Part shown: positions 10,015 to 21,567 of the stretch, in pieces
Numbering within the stretch: the stretch's first letter is position 1
How the letters are laid out: each line of letters begins with the position of its first letter
Assembly: GCA_019058245.1 (NCBI GenBank)
Contig: JAHPZJ010000013.1
Location: 169,166-233,165 of the forward strand
Direction of reading: 5' to 3'
Length of the DNA stretch: 64,000 nucleotides
Origin: Promethearchaeota archaeon
Lineage (GTDB): Archaea > Asgardarchaeota > Lokiarchaeia > Sigyniarchaeales > SOKP01
Notes under the pieces: model-generated
The model's database searches: none
The model's input: the letters and a program-made list of their open reading frames with translations, nothing else
Told to the model about the DNA's origin: nothing
Position numbers and translations under genes: made by a program

Positions 10015-10749
10015 TTATAAATTCTTTAAAATTATTTTTTCATATATATCTATTTCTTTAAAATAATTATCTTTATATCCAATTTCCCAATTTGAATTTG
10101 AAATTCTTTGCCGCAATGATTCTAAATTAAGCACAGATCTAAAATATAATAATAATATGATTCTAATCGAATGTGACTTTAAAATTTTGTAGTTCTCTAA
10201 TTCATCTAAAGCATTAAACAAATAATCTAAGTCTGGAAAAAATTTACTTAATATTTGTGTGCAGAGTGTTTCTAAATCAGAATCCTTTGAATTTAATATT
10301 CGAAATAAATTCTTTTTCATACTATTTGGAAATTCTTTTAAATTTAAAATTACTCGAAGAGCATTAATTTTAATTGGAGTATAATCATCATTTATAGCAT
10401 TATTTATTAAGTCTATAACTGGGTCAGTTATATCAGAATTTGCAGTAATTTTTTCAATCGCTTGCATTATCTCATTTCGAATCCATCTATCTGATGTATA
10501 ATAGGCCTCCAATAAAAATGTTAGATACTTCTCATTTAATATTGTTGTTTTACCAATCTCTCCTATAAAAAATATTAAATTTATTTTGACCTTATTAAAA
10601 ATCTGTTTATTTAAATTCTGAATTAAGTAATCTATATATATTAGATAATCCTTATTTGGGTTTTCACTTATTTTTATTAAAAAATCATTTATAACTTCTG
10701 GATCTTTGGCATCTTTTATTTCTTCAAAGTCCTTATTCAAAAATTCCAT
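10015..10749 (-). CDS. HEAT/ARM-like repeat protein
   Basis: Amphipathic helical repeats: FFIGEIG, DRWIRNEIMQAIEKI, DDYTPIKINALRVI. Confidence 0.7.
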   Translation of the reverse strand: MEFLNKDFEEIKDAKDPEVINDFLIKISENPNKDYLIYIDYLIQNLNKQIFNKVKINLIFFIGEIGKTTILNEKYLTFLLEAYYTSDRWIRNEIMQAIEKITANSDITDPVIDLINNAINDDYTPIKINALRVILNLKEFPNSMKKNLFRILNSKDSDLETLCTQILSKFFPDLDYLFNALDELENYKILKSHSIRIILLLYFRSVLNLESLRQRISNSNWEIGYKDNYFKEIDIYEKIILKNL

Positions 10750-10904: not shown

Positions 10905-11141
10905 TTATTTTACAGCTTCAAAATAAATATACCATTGTTCATCATCATCAATGAATTCTGTTCCCAAATGTTTATGTTTAGTTTTTGCTAAATCACGTGG
11001 AACAGATTCACTTGCCGGTTTGTAATCTGTTATTACTTTTAAAACAGTTCCTGGTCTCATTTTCATGAGTTGTTTTTTGGTTTTTAAAGCAGGAACAGGA
11101 CATACCGACCCGCAGACATTTAATTCCATATCATATTTCAT
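10905..11141 (-). CDS. tusA: TusA/SirA family sulfur carrier (copy 2, last gene of operon)
   Basis: 78 aa, GSVCPVP motif, GTVLKVITD. Confidence 0.88.
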   Translation of the reverse strand: MKYDMELNVCGSVCPVPALKTKKQLMKMRPGTVLKVITDYKPASESVPRDLAKTKHKHLGTEFIDDDEQWYIYFEAVK

Positions 11142-11181: not shown

Positions 11182-13650
11182 TTAATCACATATAATCGAA
11201 AATATTGGTTCCTCCATCTTAGGTTCAGATTTCATCTCTAATTCCATTAATTGAACTAAACGGAGTGCTTCATACCTTGCTTTCTTAGGATCGAGACCTG
11301 TTTGGTTTACGATCTCTGTAATAGTACTAGGACCTTGAAGTGATATATAGTTTAAGACTTGTTGTCTTGGAGTTTTTTCAAATTTCATCAATTCACGTTT
11401 AGTTTTCAGGTTAATAGCATCTTTCAAAGCTTCCTCGTCAACTTTTCCTTGTTCGAATAAACCTTTTTTAATAGCATCTTCAACAAGCTTTTTGCCTCGT
11501 TCTGTCCATACTAACACTGTAGTATAGCCTTCTTTCGAACCTACCTCACCAGCAGTAAGATCTGAATATATGGCAGGGAAATCTTGACAATGAGAACAGA
11601 AATGATTACAACTTAGACATCTTCGAGCTTCTTGTAAAGCCATTTCTTCATTAAACATCTGATCAATTTCATCAAAATTCCAATTAATCTCTTCAGTTGC
11701 TGCGTCTAAAGTTTCTGGTTTCAGAGAATAATCTTTTGGAGGTTTCTTAGGGCCTGTAAAAAATGATTTATCTATCTTATATCTTCCTTCCATCAAATTC
11801 TCTCCCTTTAAATATCTATCAATAGAAATTGCTGCTTCTTTTCCATGAGCAATTGCAGCAATAGCTACAGCTTTAGAATTACTAATAATATCTCCACCAG
11901 CAAAAACTCCAGGAATATTAGTTTCAAACGTTATTTCATTTACTTTAATTCTATTTCGCTCTTTTTCTAATTCATTATTTGTTGCAACATCTATCTGTTC
12001 GAAATCTACGGCCTGACCGACTGCTATTACAATGGAATCAACAATTATTTTATAATCCGATCCTTCAATTTTATTTAATGGTCTCCTTCCATTCTTATCG
12101 GGATTACCCCATTCAATATTATAACAATTTAAAACTAATTTTTCATCTCTATCCTGAGTAATTTTAGAAGTGGAAGTCGTGAAGTGAAAATTTATAAACT
12201 CCATTTCATTTTCAGGAATATCTCTTAAGACCAATTCAAGTTGTTCTTTTGACATGATATCAACAAGATGAACTTTTTCAGCACCTAGTCTAAGAGCCGT
12301 TTGAGCAACATCAACTGCAACTGCCCCTCCTCCAATTATGCCTAAAGTTTTACCTTTAAATTCTTCTTTATTTTCCCAGTATCGATATTTTCTATCCATC
12401 AGGAAATGAATTGCCACATGCACATTTGGTAAATTTTCACCTTCTAAGTGTAAAGTACGAGGTTTATATTGTCCAGTAGCAATAAATATAGCCTCAAATC
12501 CTTCATTATTCAAATCTTTAATAGTCATCTCAGGACCCAATGGTTTATTTAGTTTTACTTCGACACCAGAATCTATGATTCTACCTACATCATAATCTAG
12601 TACATAATTAGGTAATCTAAATTGTGGTACACCAAATCTTAGCATTCCTCCAATTTGATCTGTCTTTTCAAATATTGTAGGGGCATAACCCTTTCTCCTT
12701 AAAAAATATGCCGCTGTTAATCCCGCTGGTCCGGATCCAATAATTGCTATTTTTTTAGCATTTTTAGGTAATTTGGCGTTTACTTTTGCTCTATTTTTAG
12801 CACTTTCAATTTCCCATTCAGTAACAAATTTTTTTAATTCACGAATCGCAACAGGATGATCATCTCCAATTAATGTACAACCATGTTCACACTCATTTGT
12901 ACAAATTCTTCCACATATAGAGGGAAGTGGATTGTTTTCTCTAATTAAGTCTACAGCATCTTGATATTTGCCTTGACGTATTAATGAAATATAGCCTTGA
13001 GCATTAACACCAGAAGGACAGCCATTGCAACATGGAGAACAAACTAAGCCTTTATCAGTTTGTTCTGTTCTCATTTGGGAACTACAAAATAAACCAATTT
13101 TTAAAATTTCTCTATTCATTTCTTCTTCAAGATCAGCAGCTCCACGCATTTCACATGGTACACCTACAATACCAATTGGATCAAATGTTTTCCCTGTAAG
13201 TTCTACTAATCGTTTTAGGACACCAGATCTACCATAAATAACACCAGCTTTTTGGATTACTTCATTAGGATCTGACACAATCTCGGCTGCAGGCTTCTCA
13301 TCTTCTTCTTGAACCATTACAACCTCTTTAATAGATTTACTTCCTAACAATTCTTTAACAAAAGTAGTTACAAATCCTCCACTTGAAGCTTTCTTTAAAA
13401 TATCTGGATCTTTACTTCTTAACGAATAAATCGCAAAGGGTTGCTCCTTTTTAAATTTTTTCTGGATTACTTGAGGACAATTTTGATAACATTTTCCACA
13501 ATCTTGCCCATCTCTTTCTAATATACAATAGTCTTTTAAAGTAGGACGTCTTAGATCCATTTCAATATGTTTACATGAACCAGCACATAATCCACATCCT
13601 TGACATAGACCGGCATCTATAATTTCTTGTCTTAATAATTCAAAACTCAT
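11182..13650 (-). CDS. Mosaic oxidoreductase: 2x[4Fe-4S] + FrhB/FdhB-like domains with an inserted GltD/NfnB-type FAD/NAD(P)H module + C-terminal wHTH-like segment
   Basis: CQGCGLC/CGKCYQNCP; FrhB motifs SSGGFVT, VGVPCE, IGLFC; inserted CPSG..CGRIC..CEHGC, GSGPAGL, GGGAVAVD, FAGGD, EARRCLSC; then the FrhB C-terminus resumes with CSHCQDF..DLTAG..GYTTVLVWTERG. Confidence 0.8.
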   Translation of the reverse strand: MSFELLRQEIIDAGLCQGCGLCAGSCKHIEMDLRRPTLKDYCILERDGQDCGKCYQNCPQVIQKKFKKEQPFAIYSLRSKDPDILKKASSGGFVTTFVKELLGSKSIKEVVMVQEEDEKPAAEIVSDPNEVIQKAGVIYGRSGVLKRLVELTGKTFDPIGIVGVPCEMRGAADLEEEMNREILKIGLFCSSQMRTEQTDKGLVCSPCCNGCPSGVNAQGYISLIRQGKYQDAVDLIRENNPLPSICGRICTNECEHGCTLIGDDHPVAIRELKKFVTEWEIESAKNRAKVNAKLPKNAKKIAIIGSGPAGLTAAYFLRRKGYAPTIFEKTDQIGGMLRFGVPQFRLPNYVLDYDVGRIIDSGVEVKLNKPLGPEMTIKDLNNEGFEAIFIATGQYKPRTLHLEGENLPNVHVAIHFLMDRKYRYWENKEEFKGKTLGIIGGGAVAVDVAQTALRLGAEKVHLVDIMSKEQLELVLRDIPENEMEFINFHFTTSTSKITQDRDEKLVLNCYNIEWGNPDKNGRRPLNKIEGSDYKIIVDSIVIAVGQAVDFEQIDVATNNELEKERNRIKVNEITFETNIPGVFAGGDIISNSKAVAIAAIAHGKEAAISIDRYLKGENLMEGRYKIDKSFFTGPKKPPKDYSLKPETLDAATEEINWNFDEIDQMFNEEMALQEARRCLSCNHFCSHCQDFPAIYSDLTAGEVGSKEGYTTVLVWTERGKKLVEDAIKKGLFEQGKVDEEALKDAINLKTKRELMKFEKTPRQQVLNYISLQGPSTITEIVNQTGLDPKKARYEALRLVQLMELEMKSEPKMEEPIFSIICD

Positions 13651-14888
13651 ACATATCCCTCTTTAATTTTAATTTTTTTTACAATACCAATTGGATCAAT
13701 TGTAAATTCAATTGAACCATTCTTATATGTTCCTTCGATCACTTCAAAAGGGTGTGCCTTATATTCTTCAAAGTCATCATTCTCATCAATTTGCGACCTA
13801 AATCCTCCATAAGATAAATTAGATAAATTCATATTTCCAGCAATTTTTCGAATTTCTTCAGTGATTTTCTTATATTGTTCTGGATCTTTACTCTGAATTG
13901 CTTTTTGAAGTGCATTTTCCAGTTTTAGTAATTGATTTCGATAATTTTTCGTTTTTTCACTTACTTTAATATTATTAGCTTCCTCATAAGTTTCAATTAT
14001 TTTTAGAGTCAATGAGATTGAATGATCTCCTCCTAATAACCCAGAAATCAGAGGCAACTCTTCAATAAGTCTTCCAGTAAAAACATCCTCTAATAAATTT
14101 CCATTTGAAGGAATTCGACCTTTTGGCAATCCTGATGTAGGTAAAGTAAATCTAAAGAAATTACCTACAATATCAGGCAAACTTGCAGTTATATCATCAT
14201 CTTCATCAGCTAATTTATCAGTTGCTCCCTTTTCAGAATGTTCAGTCGCAACTTCAATATTTCCCATAAGAGTTCCAAACATTCCCAACATTCTGATTCC
14301 AGAACGTTCTATTATTGGTTTACAACCTCTACATGGAGCATTATAGTCAATACACCTTTCTTTACATTCTTTTGAAACAAATCCATTGCAAAGATACCCA
14401 AGATCATTGAAACATGTCTCGTTATCCTCTAACTCAATTTGTCGTTTTAACTCATCTAAATAATCACATGTTTTTCGTCTTTCGCATACAATACAGAGAT
14501 TTTGTAATTTTGGGAGTTCATTATCTTCAATCTCAAATTTCAGTTCCTCAATTTCCCCTAAACAACCATTAATATTAATTGTATCTTCGATAAAATTCTT
14601 TAATGGAGATACATCATGACCTTTTTGATTAGCCAGAGCAAAAATACCTCCTGATGTAGCACAATTTCCATAAGCAATTACTCTTTCTGAATTTGCTTTT
14701 ATCTTATTTAGGGTTTCTTTATTCTTTGAAAGTAAAAATCCAGTAATTATTGATATATCGGTCTTTTGTTCTTTCCAATTTTGAGGATCTTGTATAAATT
14801 CTATGTTATATTTGGATTCTCCTTTTAGAAGAATCGTCTCATTAAAGCATTTATTACATCCATTAAACTGGAATATTCTAACATCCAT
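13647..14888 (-). CDS. MvhG/FrhG-like [NiFe]-hydrogenase small-subunit homolog with C-terminal extension
   Basis: GCNKC, YGNCATSGG, INGC proximal-cluster motifs; CIVC..CF..GYLCNG..C..C..PCRGC medial/distal cluster motifs. Confidence 0.75.
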   Translation of the reverse strand: MDVRIFQFNGCNKCFNETILLKGESKYNIEFIQDPQNWKEQKTDISIITGFLLSKNKETLNKIKANSERVIAYGNCATSGGIFALANQKGHDVSPLKNFIEDTININGCLGEIEELKFEIEDNELPKLQNLCIVCERRKTCDYLDELKRQIELEDNETCFNDLGYLCNGFVSKECKERCIDYNAPCRGCKPIIERSGIRMLGMFGTLMGNIEVATEHSEKGATDKLADEDDDITASLPDIVGNFFRFTLPTSGLPKGRIPSNGNLLEDVFTGRLIEELPLISGLLGGDHSISLTLKIIETYEEANNIKVSEKTKNYRNQLLKLENALQKAIQSKDPEQYKKITEEIRKIAGNMNLSNLSYGGFRSQIDENDDFEEYKAHPFEVIEGTYKNGSIEFTIDPIGIVKKIKIKEGYV

Positions 14889-15330
14889 CTTTGAAAGTCC
14901 CCTCCTCTCTAATTGCAGTTGCTAATCGTTCTACAATATCTTCAAAGTCTCCGACTGCTGTTTCTCCCTCTGCAGCTCTCGAAGTATATTGATTAACAAA
15001 CTGATCACTATAACCTAACTCCTTAAATAATTTTTTCATTAATTTTATTCTATGCATGGATAAAATATTCCCATTAAAGAAATGACATGCACCTAAACAA
15101 CAACCAACACAAGCAACTGCATCAGCTCCATTGTCTAAAGCGTCCATAATCTGAATAGGACCAACTTGACCTGTACATTGGACTCGAACTATTCGAATTG
15201 CAGGATTATATGCCATTCGAGCAACTCCTGCAGTGTTTGCTGAACCTTGTCCGCATTCATTACACATAAAAACTACAATATTTTCCATCTTTTCCAATAC
15301 TTCTGGTTCAATATATTCACATTCACTCAT
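14878..15330 (-). CDS. mvhD: MvhD-like [2Fe-2S] subunit
   Basis: FMCNEC, RVQCTG, GADAV..GC..GACH. Start set at ATG 15330, which follows GGAGGAGGTG and overlaps the hdrA stop (track start 15345). Confidence 0.85.
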   Translation of the reverse strand: MSECEYIEPEVLEKMENIVVFMCNECGQGSANTAGVARMAYNPAIRIVRVQCTGQVGPIQIMDALDNGADAVACVGCCLGACHFFNGNILSMHRIKLMKKLFKELGYSDQFVNQYTSRAAEGETAVGDFEDIVERLATAIREEGTFKDGC

Positions 15331-17359
15331 TTTCGCATATAGCACCTCCTCCTGAAATTGCGATTATTTCATCTAATAGTTGATCATCGCTAAAATTTAA
15401 TAATTGAATTGCTCCTGTAGGACATACAGGCATACACATACCGCACGATTTGCAAGCAACTTCATTTATCTTAGGTGTCCCATCATTATTTATTTCTATC
15501 GCCGCTGGTGCACAAACAGTCTTACATAAACCACATCTAACGCATAATTCATAATCTACTGAAGGAATTAACATCTCTTTTTCAATATATCCTTTAACCA
15601 ATGGAGCAGCAGCTATTGCAGCAGCATTACCTGCTTGAGCAACACTTTCAGAAATATCTTTAGGACCTTGAATTGCTCCCGCTAAAAATATTCCTCCTTT
15701 ACTGCTTAAAGTTGGATTCATCTTAATGTGGAATTCTTTTAAAAATCCTTCTTTTGAGCGTAGAACCTGTAGTTTTGATCCTAACGGACCGATACCTTCG
15801 GGTGGAACCATTGCAGCTGATAGTACAACCATATCTGCTTTTAACTTTAAAGGAGTTTGACTTAAAGTATCTTCAACAATTACTCTCAGATTCCCAGAAA
15901 TTGGATCTCTTACTATTTCGGAAGGACGTCCTCTAATAAATCTTACTCCAATTTCCTGTGCAGATTTATATAATTCCTCAAAATTCAATCCAGGTGTCCT
16001 TATATCAATATAACAAATAGTAACATCCGAATCTGGATACATTTCTTTTACAATCCTTGCATTTTTAATTGCGAATTTGCAGCAAACTCCTGTACAATAT
16101 TGATTCCCTACTTGATCGTTTCTACTTCCTACACATTGTATCATTACGATACTTTTGGGAATTTTTCCATCAGAAAGACGTAAAACTTGACTGTTAGTGA
16201 GAGAACCAGGAGCTAACATCCTTTCTAATTGGAGTTGTGTTATAACATCTTCATACCCCTCTTGACCATAATGGTATGCCTCAATCTCTGAAGGGTCATA
16301 CTCGTCATAACCAGCCGCTACAACAATAGAACCAACTTTAAAAGTTTTAGTTTCTGTTTGCATTGTAAAATCTACTGCTTGTACGGGACAAACATTAATA
16401 CATGTATTACATTCTATACAACTCTTTTTATCTCTCATATATGTGGCGGGAATTGCTTGTGGATATGCTTTATAAATTGCATTTCTCATTGACATTCCAC
16501 TATCCCATTCACTAGGTACTTCAACAGGACAATGTAGGGCACATTCACCGCAAGAAGTACAATTATCTTTAACATATCTTGGTTTTATTTCAACCTCTAC
16601 TTCAAAATTACCCATTGAACCCTCTACACTCTTAACTTGAGCATTAGTATAAAGTTCTATTAATGGATGATTAGCTACTCCATTAGTTAGTGGAGAAATA
16701 CTACATTGTGGACATTCCAATGTTGGAAAAGTTTTATTTAATTGTGTCATATGTCCTCCGATTGTAGACAATTTTTCTATTAAATAAACAGGAATTCCTA
16801 ACTCTGCTAAATCATATGATGCACGAAGCCCTGCAATGCCAGCACCAATAACTAATGCAGCTTTCGTTGTAGGAATTCTCCGTGTCTCAACATCTTTTAA
16901 CTTTCTTGCCCTATTTACTCCAGCTTCTACTAACCTCATTGCTTTATTGGTTGCTTTATCTTTCTCTTTTTGATGTACCCAACTATTAAATTCTCTAATA
17001 TTTACTTGTTGATGTCTATGTCTATTAAGTCCCATTTCTTCTATTGCTTTAGCAAAAGTCTTTCCATGTTGGTTTTTTGAGCATGAAGCCACCACTGTTC
17101 TATTAACATCTAATTTTTCAATTGAATCTTTAAGCATTTGAACTCCCGGTTTTGAACACATAAACATATAATGTTCAGCTTTAATCACATTAGGTAAATC
17201 TCTAGCATAATCTGCTACTTTAGCAACATCAACAGTTCCTGCGATATTATGCCCACAATGACATACAAAAACTCCTATTCTAGGTTCTTCTTCTTGTTTA
17301 TTTTTATCTTTTTTGCTTATAACGTTTGATTCAGTTATTTTTTCATCTTTTACGGTCAT
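15323..17359 (-). CDS. hdrA: Heterodisulfide reductase subunit A
   Basis: RIGVFVCHCG.NIAG, NIRE..SWVH, GAGIAG, KTFPTLECPQC, IQCVGSR..YCTGVCC, GPKDI, inserted and C-terminal ferredoxin motifs. Confidence 0.95.
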   Translation of the reverse strand: MTVKDEKITESNVISKKDKNKQEEEPRIGVFVCHCGHNIAGTVDVAKVADYARDLPNVIKAEHYMFMCSKPGVQMLKDSIEKLDVNRTVVASCSKNQHGKTFAKAIEEMGLNRHRHQQVNIREFNSWVHQKEKDKATNKAMRLVEAGVNRARKLKDVETRRIPTTKAALVIGAGIAGLRASYDLAELGIPVYLIEKLSTIGGHMTQLNKTFPTLECPQCSISPLTNGVANHPLIELYTNAQVKSVEGSMGNFEVEVEIKPRYVKDNCTSCGECALHCPVEVPSEWDSGMSMRNAIYKAYPQAIPATYMRDKKSCIECNTCINVCPVQAVDFTMQTETKTFKVGSIVVAAGYDEYDPSEIEAYHYGQEGYEDVITQLQLERMLAPGSLTNSQVLRLSDGKIPKSIVMIQCVGSRNDQVGNQYCTGVCCKFAIKNARIVKEMYPDSDVTICYIDIRTPGLNFEELYKSAQEIGVRFIRGRPSEIVRDPISGNLRVIVEDTLSQTPLKLKADMVVLSAAMVPPEGIGPLGSKLQVLRSKEGFLKEFHIKMNPTLSSKGGIFLAGAIQGPKDISESVAQAGNAAAIAAAPLVKGYIEKEMLIPSVDYELCVRCGLCKTVCAPAAIEINNDGTPKINEVACKSCGMCMPVCPTGAIQLLNFSDDQLLDEIIAISGGGAICENE

Positions 17360-18277
17360 TTAAGCAACCTCCTCTTCTTTAGTCAATTCTTCTCCCCCAA
17401 AAATAAAATCTCGTCCCATTAATTGATATTGAAGACCAATAAATTCTTGGTCCATTCCCATACAATAGGCAACAAGCTGGGAGATATGAATTACAGGATA
17501 ATCATAATTACAGCTTTTATTTTTATTTAAATAATCTTGCCCTGTCTCAAATTGTAAATGACAAAATGGACAGATATCCAATATTATATCTGGTTTTACC
17601 TCATCGATATTTTTCATTTTTTCTGCAAATATAGTCATACTTGCATTGCCATCGTAAGCTTTTACTCCTCCACCTGCACCACAACAAGTAAGTTGTTCTT
17701 TAAATCGTACAGATTCGATTCCTAATGCTTCAACAAAATCTTCGATAATTGTTGGACCTTCAGAACTTTCAATTTCTCTAATTCTCGTTGGCTTTAAGAA
17801 ATGGCAACCATAATGAATCGCAGCTTTAACATTTACTTTCCTTACTATGTAATCTTCAATCCCCCAAGGTCCAATTTCATATCCTAAAACTTCAGCTATA
17901 TGACGTACGTTAATCGTACCTTTAAATTCATAGTCTCCAAGTAATTTAAGTTTCTTATTGACCATTTCACGATGTTCTTCGTTTTGTTTAAGATGTTTAT
18001 TTACTTCTTGGAGTGTACCAAAGCATCCATTACAAACTGTTAAAATATCAGCATCCAATTTTTCTGCAATACATAAATTTCTTGCTGCTGCCACCATCCA
18101 ATCAAATTTATTAAAAGAACGGAAAACTCCTGGAGCAGGGCAACAAGTTGCTCTTTCCATATCTAAGAGTTCATATCCTAATTTTTCCATGACAAATTTT
18201 GTTGATTTCTCGATAGCAGGATATCGATTTGGCATTATACACCCTAAAAAGAATGCAAATGTGTTTTCTTTAACCAT
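17360..18277 (-). CDS. hdrB: Heterodisulfide reductase subunit B
   Basis: FLGC, CCPAPG, CNGC, HYGCH, CCGAGGG, CPFCHLQF (two CCG domains). Confidence 0.95.
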   Translation of the reverse strand: MVKENTFAFFLGCIMPNRYPAIEKSTKFVMEKLGYELLDMERATCCPAPGVFRSFNKFDWMVAAARNLCIAEKLDADILTVCNGCFGTLQEVNKHLKQNEEHREMVNKKLKLLGDYEFKGTINVRHIAEVLGYEIGPWGIEDYIVRKVNVKAAIHYGCHFLKPTRIREIESSEGPTIIEDFVEALGIESVRFKEQLTCCGAGGGVKAYDGNASMTIFAEKMKNIDEVKPDIILDICPFCHLQFETGQDYLNKNKSCNYDYPVIHISQLVAYCMGMDQEFIGLQYQLMGRDFIFGGEELTKEEEVA

Positions 18278-18279
18278 TT

Positions 18280-18837
18280 TTATGACTCCTCCTCTTCTTT
18301 TTTCTCCTCCTTAACTGGAGGTAAATCGAACATATATTCTTCAATCTTCTTTAAATCTTTATCATCACCCTCTTGTTTAAATTTAAACGCAGTAGGGGGT
18401 AATTCTTCTAATCCTAATTCGACTCGTCGTTTTCTTACCTCATCATTTATTGGTACAGCATGTCCAAAATTCTTCAAGTATCCTACGACAGCTCTATGAT
18501 TAGGAGAAATATTGCCTAATTTAGTCGCATAATTCCTTAATTCCATAATTACATCGGTAGGTCTTACATCACGTGGACATCGTTCATAACATTGATAACA
18601 TGTCGTACAAAGCCATATATCTGGATCTTTTAATACAGATAAATCTCCTAATACAACTTTTCTTATAATTGAACGAGTCTTTAAAGCAGTCCATCTTCCA
18701 CTTTCACAACTTGCCGTACAAGTTCCACACTGGATACACCGCCAAATATTTGATTTTCTTTCAATATTTTTGAAAAATTCTTGATCAAAATCTTCGTCTG
18801 TTTTATATTCTCTTGCTTGTTCTTCTACATCAGACGT
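18280..18837 (-). CDS. hdrC: Heterodisulfide reductase subunit C (185 aa, apparent ACG start)
   Basis: The track ORF (18280-18546) is only the C-terminal half. The frame stays open 97 codons upstream through CIQCGTCTASC and IWLCTTCYQCYERCPR to ACG at 18837, which follows AAGGTGA-TGATAA (in-frame TAA immediately before). Confidence 0.9.
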   Translation of the reverse strand, partial: TSDVEEQAREYKTDEDFDQEFFKNIERKSNIWRCIQCGTCTASCESGRWTALKTRSIIRKVVLGDLSVLKDPDIWLCTTCYQCYERCPRDVRPTDVIMELRNYATKLGNISPNHRAVVGYLKNFGHAVPINDEVRKRRVELGLEELPPTAFKFKQEGDDKDLKKIEEYMFDLPPVKEEKKEEEES

Positions 18838-18896
18838 TTATCATCACCTTTTTTAATATAAAATATAAAAAAAATTTTTTTTTGTTAATTTTTAAA

Positions 18897-19331
18897 TTAT
18901 AATGAAACTATTCTGCCACCATTACTCATTTCTAAAAATGAAGCAGCACCAACAGGATCTTCAACCCAATCAAGTAAATCTTCTCTCTTAATCCCCATTA
19001 ATTCCATTGTCATTTGACATGGATATAATTTCATATTTCCGTTATCAACAGCATCTTTAATCATTGCCCATGGATCCTCAATTCCAAATTTTTTCATTCT
19101 TTTCTTGAACATTTTTGCTGCCATACCTTTCATTGGAGTAGGCATTCCAGCAACTTTTGGTTTAAATTTCTTTTTTAAAAGATTTAATCCCCAAAAAGTA
19201 AAGAAAAAATTCATTTTAGTATCCATAGCATCACCTGTTGTTCCAAGGATCATCATCATTGCGAACTTTTCGAATGATTTGTCCTTTACAATAAAATTTA
19301 TTGTTTCAGCATCTTCTGCCATATATACCAC
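18897..19331 (-). CDS. DsrE2/DsrE-like family sulfur-transfer protein
   Basis: FFFTFWGL, YPCQMTMELMG, VGAASFL. Likely true start is ATG 19322 after GGTGG. Confidence 0.85.
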   Translation of the reverse strand: MVYMAEDAETINFIVKDKSFEKFAMMMILGTTGDAMDTKMNFFFTFWGLNLLKKKFKPKVAGMPTPMKGMAAKMFKKRMKKFGIEDPWAMIKDAVDNGNMKLYPCQMTMELMGIKREDLLDWVEDPVGAASFLEMSNGGRIVSL

Positions 19332-19442
19332 CTTTTTTTTTTTTTTTTTTTAAAAATTCCTTTTTTTTGTTTAATATTGTAAATTTTCTGGTTTTACCCA
19401 GAACTTATCAAAAAATTTTTTGATTTTTATTTTTTCATCTTA

Positions 19443-19784
19443 CTACATCCAGGATATTACTTTTGGTGTAGCATCAATAATATCTATTAGATCCTCATAT
19501 TCTATAGATTTAATTTTGCCATGTATGTATTCTGGATCTATACCTCGAGCTTTCATGTCTGATTTCATAGCAAATACGGCTACATCTAAACTGAGGAGTT
19601 CTTCCATTTCTGTTTGTATCTTTCCCTTTGTTGTTATGCCTATTATGCCATCATGAATTAAAACTAATCCAAGCTTTGAATTTTTTTTAATTTGACTTTT
19701 CAAAATAGGTAATAACCTCTGTAATTGATTCCCTGTTAATCCACTGAATCCAAACAAATAAATCATATCAAGATTTTCTGTCAT
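19443..19784 (-). CDS. DsrH/TusB family protein
   Basis: VLIHDGI, DMKARGI, IEYEDLIDII..VISW. Confidence 0.8.
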   Translation of the reverse strand: MTENLDMIYLFGFSGLTGNQLQRLLPILKSQIKKNSKLGLVLIHDGIIGITTKGKIQTEMEELLSLDVAVFAMKSDMKARGIDPEYIHGKIKSIEYEDLIDIIDATPKVISWM

Positions 19785-19800
19785 CTTTTTTTATCCCCCT

Positions 19801-20169
19801 TTAATATCTAAAGCATGTACTTGCATTAGCAATTAAATCTGTTAATTCATCATATCCAATAATTTTCAAATTTTCATAGTCAATCATATCAGCTTTAGTT
19901 AATCCTGCATCAATTAAAGCAGATTCAATAATATATACTTCTAAATCAGATAAATCAGCCATCTCTAATACTTCAGCTAAAGGGTCCATTCCTACAGCTT
20001 CAGGGTTACAATTTTTATTGAATAAATAAACAGCATCACCCATAAACACAATTTTACAGTCAACAAATTCTCCTAGAGCAGTAAATCCTGATCCAATCCT
20101 AATAGCCTCAACTGCAGAATTTCTGCCAATTGGTGATTGATCGCTTATTATTACCACAGATTCTACCAT
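19801..20169 (-). CDS. DsrF/TusC family protein
   Basis: SPIG...EAIR, VFMGDAVY; lies between dsrE and dsrH. Confidence 0.75.
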   Translation of the reverse strand: MVESVVIISDQSPIGRNSAVEAIRIGSGFTALGEFVDCKIVFMGDAVYLFNKNCNPEAVGMDPLAEVLEMADLSDLEVYIIESALIDAGLTKADMIDYENLKIIGYDELTDLIANASTCFRY

Positions 20170-20174
20170 AATTA

Positions 20175-20543
20175 TTAACCTCCCGCTCCAAATACAATCA
20201 ATTTATCAGCATAAATTACCCAATTTGAGAAGTCTCCCAAACCATCTTCAGTAGCACCTTCAATAAATTCTGGTTCTTTTAGCCCTGTTATACTAACCCA
20301 TGTACTACACCCTGATATGGGAATTTTGTTATCATTAGAAAATTTCTCAATTTTCGCTGGGATATTTCTTATTGTATTTCCACAACTAATCTCCTTCTTA
20401 AGGTTATAAACACCAGTCCCAAAGAAAAATATACCCGCTATCTCATGCCCCTTTCTTATTGCAGCTTTTCCTATTTCTATCAGAGAATCTACAGCTTGAT
20501 ATTTGTAAGGTTCCGTGCTAATAAAGAAAACATATTTAGACAT
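20175..20543 (-). CDS. DsrE/TusD family sulfurtransferase
   Basis: EPY, GHEIAGIFFFGTGVY, conserved Cys in GCSTW, GLG..ADKLIVF. Confidence 0.82.
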   Translation of the reverse strand: MSKYVFFISTEPYKYQAVDSLIEIGKAAIRKGHEIAGIFFFGTGVYNLKKEISCGNTIRNIPAKIEKFSNDNKIPISGCSTWVSITGLKEPEFIEGATEDGLGDFSNWVIYADKLIVFGAGG

Positions 20544-20572
20544 ATTAATATCCTTACTCCGTATAATGCGTT

Positions 20573-20806
20573 TTAAGCCTTTTTAATGACAAAAATTAAA
20601 TTTCCATTGTCTTCTCGAAGTTCTACTAATTCGTCACCGCTTTTATTGAGAAGCGCTGGAATGTCCTTTTTAGCCCCTACATCATCTGCGATTACTTCTA
20701 TAACCTCTCCAGAAGTCAAATTTCTTAATTCCTTTTTTGTTTTCAAAACCGGCATTGGACATTTTAAGCCTGTATAATTATATGTTTTAACAGCCATTTT
20801 TTTCAC
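20573..20806 (-). CDS. tusA: TusA/SirA family sulfur carrier (copy 1, first gene of operon)
   Basis: GLKCPMP, GEVIEVIADD..AKKDIP. Confidence 0.92.
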   Translation of the reverse strand: MKKMAVKTYNYTGLKCPMPVLKTKKELRNLTSGEVIEVIADDVGAKKDIPALLNKSGDELVELREDNGNLIFVIKKA

Positions 20807-21099: not shown

Positions 21100-21567
21100 A
21101 TGGTATCAACAAATGGAACTCTTGATGAGATAGATCGACAAATTCTTGAGTTATTACAAGATGATGCAAAATTAACTATTAGAGAAATTGCTCATCAAAC
21201 AAAGAAGAGTGCTACTGCTATAAGAGCACGTATTCAACGACTTGAGAAAGAATTGATAAAAAAATATGTAGCGCTAATCGATTGCCGTCAATTAGGATAT
21301 CGTGAAATGGTAATGGCATCACTGAGAGTAAATGCAACAAATCCATTAGAGGACGTTAAAAACGAAATTGAAAAGATGGAAAAAATAAAATATGCCTATG
21401 TTGTCACAGGAGAGTATCCTTTATTTATTATGGCAAAATGTTTAGATCATTCAGATTCTATGGGTCTTATAGAAACACTTCGCAACCTTCCTGGAGTTGA
21501 GGAAGTTAAAACTGAGATTGTGTTAGACCGAATTAAAGAAGATCATTCTATTATTATCCCTGAATAA
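21100..21567 (+). CDS. Lrp/AsnC family transcriptional regulator
   Basis: LDEIDRQILELLQDDAK HTH; C-terminal RAM domain VTGEY..LRNLPGVEEVKTEIVL. Confidence 0.95.
   Translation: MVSTNGTLDEIDRQILELLQDDAKLTIREIAHQTKKSATAIRARIQRLEKELIKKYVALIDCRQLGYREMVMASLRVNATNPLEDVKNEIEKMEKIKYAYVVTGEYPLFIMAKCLDHSDSMGLIETLRNLPGVEEVKTEIVLDRIKEDHSIIIPE

Follow-up and report, generated by a model that had tools for sequence, protein, structure and literature searches.

A GltD/NfnB-type flavoprotein nested within an FrhB-like subunit, a candidate NADH input arm of a hydrogenase-less Hdr complex in Lokiarchaeia

In a 64,000-nucleotide stretch of the genome of a Promethearchaeota archaeon of the class Lokiarchaeia (contig JAHPZJ010000013.1, positions 169,166 to 233,165; hereafter the window), a single open frame on the minus strand (11182-13650) encodes an 822-residue protein (P0001) in which a flavoprotein module of the GltD/NfnB type lies inside a subunit of the FrhB family. 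We refer to this protein as FrhB::GltD and consider it, with a probability of roughly 0.55, to be the nicotinamide adenine dinucleotide (NADH) input arm of a bifurcating heterodisulfide reductase (Hdr) complex, HdrABC-MvhD, that lacks a hydrogenase. This assignment builds on the protein's architecture and fold, its pattern of cysteines, its signature of the NADH type and the conserved operon, all of which are demonstrated in what follows.

The frame lies in DNA of low G+C content (25-35% in the window), and its product consists of five parts in succession, namely a 2x[4Fe-4S] ferredoxin domain, a first piece of FrhB, the GltD/NfnB module, a second piece of FrhB and a winged-helix-like tail (Table 1). 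Pfam profiles placed FrhB_FdhB_N at residues 75-146 (PF04422, 54.8 bits with a cut-off of 22), Fer4_20 at 190-283 (PF14691, 83 bits), Pyr_redox_2 at 300-603 (PF07992, 101.7 bits) and FrhB_FdhB_C (PF04432) in two separate stretches, all four families exceeding their curated cut-offs, which is the domain set named in a preliminary description of the window made from its letters. NCBIfam models of the FpoF/FrhB type matched both ends of the protein and models of the GltD type its middle, the longest match (NF009410/PRK12771, residues 195-688) staying below its cut-off (400.9 vs 516). The N-terminal ferredoxin domain has counterparts in FpoF, Fsr, FwdI and the zeta subunit of ACDS: when the N-terminal end alone was searched against PDB sequences, residues 5-174 matched Fsr, FwdI and ACDS zeta including their 2x[4Fe-4S] ferredoxin domain (aligned to 7np8_A 4-168 and 8rja_E 5-199).

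The [4Fe-4S] cluster of Methanothermobacter marburgensis FrhB is held by C104, C134, C192 and C195 (PMC3591093). Residues 74-174 and 685-762 of P0001 align with residues 9-112 and 192-267 of that protein, and the alignment identifies C166 (VPC), C189 (GLFC), and C685 and C688 (CSHC) as the corresponding ligands. The foreign module is inserted between the second and the third of them, the 495 residues between C189 and C685 standing in place of the equivalent of FrhB 135-191. In a genome-wide scan with PF04432 the FrhB_C match of P0001 was accordingly split, profile positions 4-49 falling on residues ~147-192 and positions 65-149 on residues ~657-739. No contiguous FrhB_C is present in P0001, and when residues 193-683 were spliced out and the rest was aligned to five uninterrupted FrhB paralogs from the same genome, a segment of ~60 residues of the paralogs had no counterpart. 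One part of the second profile match requires a different assignment. Residues 657-684, aligned to FrhB_C positions 65/69-93, were rejected as FrhB sequence, since on their own they matched the N-terminal part of Fer4_20 and not FrhB_C, and since proteins consisting of GltD only end in the same NF.E...EA.RCLxC motif. Residues 658-687 match Fer4_20 and therefore belong to the inserted module, with FrhB resuming at CSHCQDF.

Structure prediction provided additional support for this arrangement. An AlphaFold2 model of P0001, computed from a 59-row alignment, reached a predicted local distance difference test (pLDDT) score of 82.5 and a predicted template modelling (pTM) score of 0.74. Segments of low confidence (191-202, 648-656 and 686-689) lay mostly at both junctions and in the linker into the second junction, with a further one (752-758) directly ahead of the tail. 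We compared the model with ~48,000 PDB representatives using VIA-align. The insert found its best matches in NfnA of NfnABC (9n5v_A; model residues 189-684, Z 39.9, 444 residues aligned) and in StnC (8oh5_C; 190-685, Z 38.6, 449 residues), ahead of 4ylf_B (Z 35.3) and 6s6s_G (Z 31.4), and the top Foldseek matches for the insert in the PDB agreed. The two FrhB pieces superposed together on solved chains of the FrhB type: the ACDS zeta subunit (8riu_E; model residues 1-759, Z 28.0, 274 residues aligned), FwdI (8rja_K; 1-758, Z 26.7, 285 residues), FrhB (9r51_B; 66-760, Z 23.6, 220 of 282 residues) and ElpB (8rvu_E; 72-756, Z 21.6, 203 residues). These superpositions came from VIA-align; FrhB chains were not among the Foldseek matches displayed, which GltD/DPD chains filled. 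Because both pieces superpose together, they make up, in the model, one FrhB domain into which the GltD module is inserted.

Taken together, the split profile, the paralog alignment and the superposition bear out the view of the preliminary description that the protein arose by domain insertion and not by end-to-end fusion, and that part of the FrhB C-domain has been replaced. Its boundaries also hold, FrhB motifs running up to IGLFC, whose cysteine is the second cluster ligand; the large GltD/NfnB module was correctly recognized, and its size, given there as about 480 residues, has to be corrected to the 495 stated above. As for the tail, which had been called winged helix-turn-helix-like, the model shows three helices (761-772, 777-784 and 788-800) and two strands (804-807 and 816-819) in a block of pLDDT 82-91 up to residue 820. 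A Pfam search with the tail alone returned weak winged-helix matches (E 0.1-0.2) and no significant family; the term therefore applies by predicted fold only.

The inserted module departs from an ordinary GltD chain in the order of its parts. Its N-terminal end begins at Fer4_20 positions 13-30 with SPCxxxCP, while residues 658-687 match positions 4-35 of the same profile (26.2 bits, cut-off 25.8) even though they lie C-terminal to the flavoprotein domains. P0139, a 527-residue homolog made of GltD only, aligned with the module from its own N-terminal SPCxxxCP to its C-terminus, where RCLRC is followed by a few residues. By these alignments the module is circularly permuted: since the P0139 alignment and the Fer4_20 match both place RCLxC at the C-terminal end, the first Fer4_20 motif would take two cysteines from that end and two from the N-terminal end. 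Both ends of the module would then meet at one cluster, which would make the module insertable into a host loop. At the second junction two ligands of the cassette (C678, C681) and two of the host (C685, C688) form a C-x2-C-x3-C-x2-C array within an 11-residue stretch, C681 lying 3 residues ahead of C685, and at the first junction 17 residues separate C189 from C207. With spacings so short on both sides, the terminal cluster of the cassette and the FrhB cluster should be neighbours. All four FrhB cluster cysteines and the cassette cysteines are invariant in 42/42 members of the family.

The closest structural relatives suggest what such a module might do. In the Bfu-type NfnABC and StnABC enzymes (PDB 9N5V, 9BOV, 8OH5), the NfnL-like domain of NfnA/StnC shows the same circular permutation with RCLxC at the C-terminal end and, as here, is flanked by other Fe-S domains within a larger chain, where it serves as the pyridine-nucleotide input, relaying electrons of NADPH singly into Fe-S clusters toward a separate bifurcation site (PMC11829005). 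Because these solved relatives work so, the cassette of P0001 should likewise act as a pyridine-nucleotide input. The hosts differ, an FrhB subunit here as opposed to a HydA-like N-terminal part and an FdhA-like domain there. P0001 has no molybdopterin/FdhA-like domain, and its operon has no NuoF/NuoE-like genes, that is, none of the HydB/HydC-like partners of NfnABC/StnABC.

The two kinds of module also differ in the dinucleotide site. The Rossmann motif GGG(A/P)VAVD...(H)LVD-I-(M/A) was found in 40/42 members of the family, the exceptions being P0122 (MVEIR) and P0123 (YRR), whereas nearly all other sampled GltD modules carry YRR(S/T)..EMPA at that place, and NfnABC/StnABC carry YRR. P0001 thus combines the Fer4_20 domain and the FAD/NAD(P) Rossmann domains of the GltD/NfnB/DPD-N family with a lack of the NADPH signature YRR..EMPA. 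An acidic residue ending the second beta-strand is the classical determinant of NAD over NADP. As the acidic residue of HLVD replaces the NADPH-type YRR, the FrhB::GltD family is predicted to prefer NADH.

On the host side, the insertion falls at the site of coenzyme F420. In M. marburgensis FrhB, residues 148-172 form a three-stranded sheet with an IGKGK turn located at the F420 ring, and S209 adjoins the F420 density (PMC3591093). The sheet is part of the displaced segment 135-191. At the position of S209 the paralogs and the aligned PDB chains have S, G or A; P0001 has E702 there, and among the 42 aligned members it is E in 38 and D in 4. To judge from the alignments, two elements lining the F420 site are therefore altered, one by deletion and one by a bulky, acidic side chain. 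Compared with the solved proteins of this family (FrhB, FpoF, Fsr-N, FwdI and ACDS zeta; PDB 4OMF, 9R51, 7NP8, 8RJA, 8RIU), P0001 keeps the ferredoxin domain, FrhB_N, the four cluster cysteines, GGxVT, the tyrosine and D..G..G at fold Z scores of 22-28, and differs in having a 495-residue flavoprotein where those proteins have ~57 residues between their second and third cluster cysteines, Glu/Asp at S209 and an added tail. The preliminary description had considered an FrhB scaffold that exchanged F420 for NAD(P)H; the lost sheet and the substitution at S209 favour such an exchange, which HLVD(I) narrows to NADH.

The gene is embedded in an Hdr operon. Reading along the minus strand from 20806 to 10905, the order is TusA, DsrE, DsrF, DsrH, DsrE2, HdrC, HdrB, HdrA, MvhD, an orphan MvhG-like hydrogenase small subunit, FrhB::GltD and a second TusA. 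The start codon (ATG) of FrhB::GltD and the stop codon of the MvhG-like gene share a 4-nt overlap, and the MvhG-like and MvhD genes (14878-14888) and the MvhD and HdrA genes (15323-15345) overlap as well, which makes this a tightly packed operon. The order MvhD, MvhG-like, FrhB::GltD, TusA was kept in 11/11 close loci, the full twelve-gene order in two relatives, L026 (~53% protein identity) and L029 (71%), and the operon order up to the ends of a 10-kb contig in a third, L028 (79%). Over 14 loci the position of FrhB::GltD inside the Hdr operon was strictly conserved.

Residues 1-256 of the MvhG-like protein align to solved MvhG chains, including the C-terminal FTLP motif, and the proximal-cluster cysteines (C11, C14, C76 and C109) are kept together with those of the medial and distal clusters. 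A C-terminal extension of ~155 residues has many invariant residues among 13 orthologs and no family match; an AlphaFold model of the subunit with these 13 orthologs (pLDDT 48.5) was too poor for use. No [NiFe] large subunit is encoded within the operon; the genome has two of them, both at other places on the contig and each paired with an adjacent small subunit of its own. In one of its two alternatives the preliminary description had FrhB retain its docking to the small subunit, and here it has to be revised. The neighbour is of the MvhG type and not of the FrhG type, and P0001 brings its own equivalent of the 2x[4Fe-4S] domain of FrhG, the Fsr-type N-terminal ferredoxin domain corresponding in structure to the C-terminal part of FrhG, where FrhB docks (PMC10229431). 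The pairing would therefore be a new one, deduced only from the conserved gene order.

On these results it is more likely than not that an FrhB scaffold of the FpoF/Fsr type lost the sheet walling off F420 and acquired a permuted GltD/NfnB cassette at exactly that place, by which NADH would feed the Hdr complex. Hydride from NADH would pass to the flavin adenine dinucleotide (FAD) of the cassette, and electrons would leave singly through the two [4Fe-4S] clusters of the cassette to the FrhB cluster. The path beyond the cassette clusters, which we infer from gene order and homology, would continue from the FrhB cluster to the ferredoxin domain at the N-terminus, the clusters of the MvhG-like subunit, MvhD and HdrA; in Fsr and its kin, electrons pass among the flavin and the cluster of the FrhB part and the N-terminal ferredoxin domain (PMC10229431). 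At HdrA the path would branch into ferredoxin reduction and into HdrBC, which would reduce a disulfide or persulfide, the substrate probably being carried on the TusA/DsrE-type proteins of the operon. Judging from the flanking carriers, the oxidant may be a persulfide bound to protein or a similar compound, and in another Asgard archaeon persulfides bound to TusA or DsrE have been proposed, in a preprint, as substrate of a hydrogenase-linked Hdr (10.1101/2025.07.22.663070). In this scheme we likewise infer the cofactors bound, the contacts between subunits, the electron donor and acceptor, and the direction.

Several observations weigh against an NADH input arm. P0123, the most divergent full-length member (about 45% identical), retains the NADPH-type YRR, and no Hdr, MvhD or MvhG-like gene was found on the contig of this type of gene as far as that contig reaches. 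The contact between FrhB::GltD and the MvhG-like subunit is suggested only by gene order. The FAD-associated FrhB motifs (GGxVT, Y139 and D..AG.xGS) are invariant in the 42 aligned members, which are 46-100% identical, and by this invariance the FrhB half probably still binds a flavin, continued use of which would be the easier explanation. Finally, F420 is most likely available in the lineage, judging from its gene content, and F420H2 is thus a possible donor. CofD and CofE exceed their cut-offs in this genome, where they are adjacent on contig C14, and CofG does so in 15/15 genomes of the genus with a completeness of at least 93%, adjoined in 15/15 by a weaker radical-SAM match that is probably CofH. 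A lack of F420 synthesis, considered because searches of this genome, which is 76% complete, recovered neither CofG nor CofH, was rejected on the strength of CofG in those near-complete relatives. At least 11 other FrhB_C-bearing genes are present in the genome (contigs C28, C13, C22, C6, C17 and C30; loci L005-L012).

The last of these points also speak for a rival reading, already raised as dual input in the preliminary description, which we regard as a clearly less likely alternative. FrhB::GltD would here be a dual-input or transhydrogenase node, with the FrhB FAD serving F420, the cassette FAD serving NADH, and shared clusters letting either donor feed Hdr or equilibrate F420H2 with NAD+. 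Beyond the invariant FAD motifs, the Cof genes and the many FrhB paralogs, the FrhB fold is otherwise intact, as its superposition on 220 of 282 residues illustrates. Against it speak the loss of the sheet whose turn, IGKGK, lies by the F420 ring, and the presence of Glu/Asp at S209 in every aligned member. Moreover, an uninterrupted FrhB paralog (L010:925-2016) lies between HdrB-like and HdrA-like genes, and from this placement F420-linked arms with an intact FrhB appear to exist alongside the FrhB::GltD fusion, a dedicated F420-linked Hdr arm being already there.

A wider interpretation, in which the NADH-arm proposal is extended to the whole operon, is more speculative and in our view doubtful. 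The operon would encode an energy-conserving Asgard enzyme, an electron-bifurcating, ferredoxin-reducing, NADH-dependent (possibly also F420H2-dependent) reductase of protein-bound persulfide or polysulfide on TusA/DsrE2/DsrEFH, in which FrhB and its mobile cassette replaced the [NiFe] large subunit of Mvh, and within Lokiarchaeia the cassette would have moved from one kind of host to another, FrhB-like and HdrCB-like.

Redox potentials bear on another proposal, which we judge improbable. The potentials of F420 and NAD are nearly equal, so that a branch from NADH to F420 would have no driving force. Such a branch would be part of a second bifurcation site, in which the cassette FAD, like the b-FAD of NfnSL, splits the electrons of NAD(P)H between low-potential clusters and a high-potential FrhB flavin, giving a complex with two bifurcating flavins. 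The homology of the module to NfnB (4ylf_B, as above, and 5jca_L) is in keeping with this idea, which has also been raised for NfnB-like insertions in HdrA of anaerobic methanotrophic archaea of group 1 (ANME-1; PMC9012536); the operon has no NfnA/NfnS-like partner with its [2Fe-2S] cluster and a-FAD.

Similarly improbable is a role outside the complex, either as a redox-sensing regulator whose tail binds DNA while the remainder senses NADH or redox state, or as a stand-alone NADH:ferredoxin or NADH:persulfide reductase working with the adjacent TusA. The conservation of the winged-helix-like tail in all full-length members and one JGI annotation that adds 'predicted transcriptional regulator' are in keeping with such a role, and so is the P0123-type gene (L027:8869-11310, G288:C134), as it directly follows a TusA gene at which the contig ends upstream, and is followed by unrelated genes, none of them Hdr, MvhD or MvhG-like. 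A role of this kind sits poorly with the 4-nt overlap with the MvhG-like gene, with the fixed place in the Hdr operon at 14 loci, with the tail's lack of a significant DNA-binding family match and with an Lrp/AsnC regulator that is already encoded divergently (21100-21567). That two genes were merely joined by mis-assembly or by a lost stop has a negligible chance: no point was found in favour of such an artefact, both FrhB pieces join in a common fold in the model, ~37 full-length genomic matches have zero internal stops, and more than 120 clusters from independent assemblies, of the same length and domain set, rule out a chimera.

These clusters (formed at 90% identity) were recovered by a word-indexed search and come from four independent sources, the NCBI, JGI, ENA and Logan assemblies; their members have 817-825 residues, the same Pfam set and 71-89% identity. 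The best matches of P0001 are named as metagenome-assembled genomes of Lokiarchaeota, Promethearchaeota and other Asgard archaea, and public annotation calls the homologs only 'FAD-dependent oxidoreductase' or 'glutamate synthase beta subunit-like'. An exhaustive search of representatives at 50% identity gave three full-length clusters only, that of the query, P0122 (56%) and P0123 (46%), all other matches being confined to residues ~204-690. Among 301 Asgard genomes, full-length or FrhB-containing matches occurred in ~36 of the 69 genomes of the window's family and in 2 of the 7 of a sister family, and there was none in the ~200 remaining Asgard genomes searched apart from one genome of a distant Asgard family, which carries a ~80% identical copy on a 10.2-kb contig (L028, G295:C137). 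This last copy may reflect horizontal transfer or a binning error.

The closest relative of the insert, which is encoded in the same genome, belongs to another host. It is a 920-residue protein (L025:4203-6962; G000:C17:82202-84961) in which an HdrC-like dicluster domain is followed by a GltD module (55% identical to the insert, with LVDI) and by two CCG domains as in HdrB, and by its sequence it looks like an NADH-dependent disulfide reductase of the HdrD type. Its gene is followed by an aldehyde:ferredoxin oxidoreductase gene and a polyferredoxin gene. In a quick, unrooted IQ-TREE analysis of 70 modules, one clade with a Shimodaira-Hasegawa-like approximate likelihood ratio test (SH-aLRT) support of 99 held P0127 (HdrCB host, YRR), P0123 (FrhB host, YRR) and a trio of unresolved order, consisting of P0122 (FrhB host), the 920-residue paralog (HdrCB host) and the main FrhB-hosted family. 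Because FrhB and HdrCB hosts are interleaved in this tree, the cassette appears to have switched hosts or to have been exchanged within the lineage. The P0123-type member may represent an older or an alternative state of the system. Beside it, at L027:3763-6396, lie a gene for a small GTPase of the Gtr1/RagA-Arf family and one for a protein with an IFT52 GIFT domain, eukaryote-like signature proteins that are typical of Asgard genomes.

Neither the insertion of such modules into Hdr subunits nor Hdr complexes with F420- or NADH-dependent donor arms are new. In HdrA9-11 of ANME-1 and in 'type III HdrA', an NfnB/GltD module of ~500 residues is inserted in an Fe-S domain of the Hdr subunit, and entry of NAD(P)H into the complex by way of this module has been proposed (PMC9012536; PMC12054007). 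The host there is HdrA, in ANME-1 and Bathyarchaeia, as opposed to an FrhB-like protein in Lokiarchaeia; the HdrA of the present operon is ordinary. In the literature searched, mostly outside subscription journals, we found HdrA-hosted insertions only; a GltD/NfnB module hosted by FrhB, or an orphan MvhG-like subunit as its partner, was not described there. Akin to the present operon, ElpABC-HdrABC of M. marburgensis (PDB 8RVU), and FdhAB-MvhD-HdrABC, attach a non-hydrogenase arm to HdrABC through an MvhD homolog, and in Elp an FrhB-family subunit together with a cofactor-less FdhA relic, kept as a scaffold, takes the place of Mvh (PMC12350162). Elp differs in using F420H2 at an intact FdhB/FrhB site and in having a truncated FdhA as its relic, in contrast to the hydrogenase small-subunit relic and the predicted NADH donor described here. 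Within the same lineage, the single-chain HdrC-GltD-HdrB proteins (~920 residues) carry the sister cassette of the clade above in an HdrD-like fusion host. In the FlxABCD-HdrABC system of Desulfovibrio, FlxA-C resemble sulfhydrogenase beta/gamma-type proteins, with NADH-binding subunits unrelated to FrhB::GltD, and the proposed thiol/disulfide partner is DsrC, a protein of sulfur metabolism. As far as the title of the original report goes (Ramos et al. 2015, pmid 25367508, as given in the references of PMC5861303), this system is an NADH dehydrogenase/heterodisulfide reductase and in that sense an NADH-linked Hdr like the one proposed here, with an MvhD-like subunit.

Two observations on the operon stand apart from these questions. 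In HdrC (stretch 18280-18850 of the minus strand), the first ATG in frame (18546) comes only after both CxxCxxCxxxCP motifs, there is no ATG, GTG or TTG between the preceding in-frame stop and the cysteine motifs, and the alignments of the L026, L028 and L029 orthologs already begin within residues 1-10 of the long form; a non-canonical start would be needed, or the sequence contains an error. Just downstream of the last TusA gene, a 244-residue protein with weak matches to HEAT/adaptin repeats is encoded on the minus strand (10015-10749).

Table 1. Coordinates of FrhB::GltD, its parts and the genes of its operon in the window.
Feature	Position	Strand	Basis
FrhB::GltD nested flavoprotein, whole open reading frame, 822 residues (P0001)	11182-13650	-	Pfam, open reading frame, homologs
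N-terminal ferredoxin domain, residues 9-60, 8 Cys for two [4Fe-4S]	13471-13626	-	PDB sequence alignments, NF040616 FpoF match
FrhB part 1, residues 73-189: FrhB_N and start of FrhB_C; GGxVT, Y139, C166 (VPC), C189 (GLFC)	13084-13434	-	Pfam, alignments, PMC3591093
Inserted GltD/NfnB module, residues 190-684, circularly permuted by alignment; SPCxxxCP N-end, NF.E..EA.RCLxC C-end; predicted two [4Fe-4S], FAD, dinucleotide site	11599-13083	-	profiles, alignments, fold
Dinucleotide-binding Rossmann motif, residues 437-466, GGGAVAVD...HLVD464-I-M	12253-12342	-	alignment vs GltD modules
Permuted N-terminal Fer4_20 piece, residues 658-684, ligands C678 and C681	11599-11679	-	profile match, alignments
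FrhB part 2, residues 685-759: C685-x2-C688-QDF, D697..AG-E702-VGS	11374-11598	-	alignments, profile, PMC3591093
Winged-helix-like C-terminal tail, residues 760-822	11185-11373	-	AlphaFold2 model
Second TusA, directly downstream of FrhB::GltD	10905-11141	-	profile search
Orphan MvhG-like hydrogenase small subunit, 413 residues	13647-14888	-	profiles, alignments to solved MvhG
MvhD homolog (FlpD)	14878-15345	-	Pfam, NCBIfam
HdrA, HdrA2-type model match over positions 1-640, no fused MvhD	15323-17359	-	NCBIfam
HdrB, 2x CCG; TIGR03288 above cut-off	17360-18277	-	Pfam, NCBIfam
HdrC	18280-18840	-	NCBIfam
Sulfur-carrier genes DsrE2, DsrH, DsrF, DsrE, TusA	18897-20806	-	Pfam, NCBIfam

Among the relatives of the archaeal ancestor of eukaryotes, Lokiarchaeia have been studied best, and models for syntrophy in this group hinge on the balance of NADH, ferredoxin, H2 and sulfur. 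Our results suggest that an Hdr complex linked to sulfur carriers draws its electrons from NADH instead of H2 in one Lokiarchaeial family, in roughly half of whose sampled genomes the operon is present; if true, low-potential ferredoxin would become accessible by a further route that does not depend on hydrogen or, with the reaction reversed, NAD+ would be reduced by confurcation. FrhB::GltD also offers a directly testable case of a putative swap of a cofactor site, from F420 to NADH, on a conserved scaffold. More generally, it illustrates a modular way of redox rewiring, in which a permuted GltD cassette could slot in between two of a host's cluster ligands because both of its ends would lie at one Fe-S cluster, and such cassettes are now known in FrhB-like and HdrCB-like hosts (described here), in HdrA (published) and between the Fe-S domains of NfnA/StnC.

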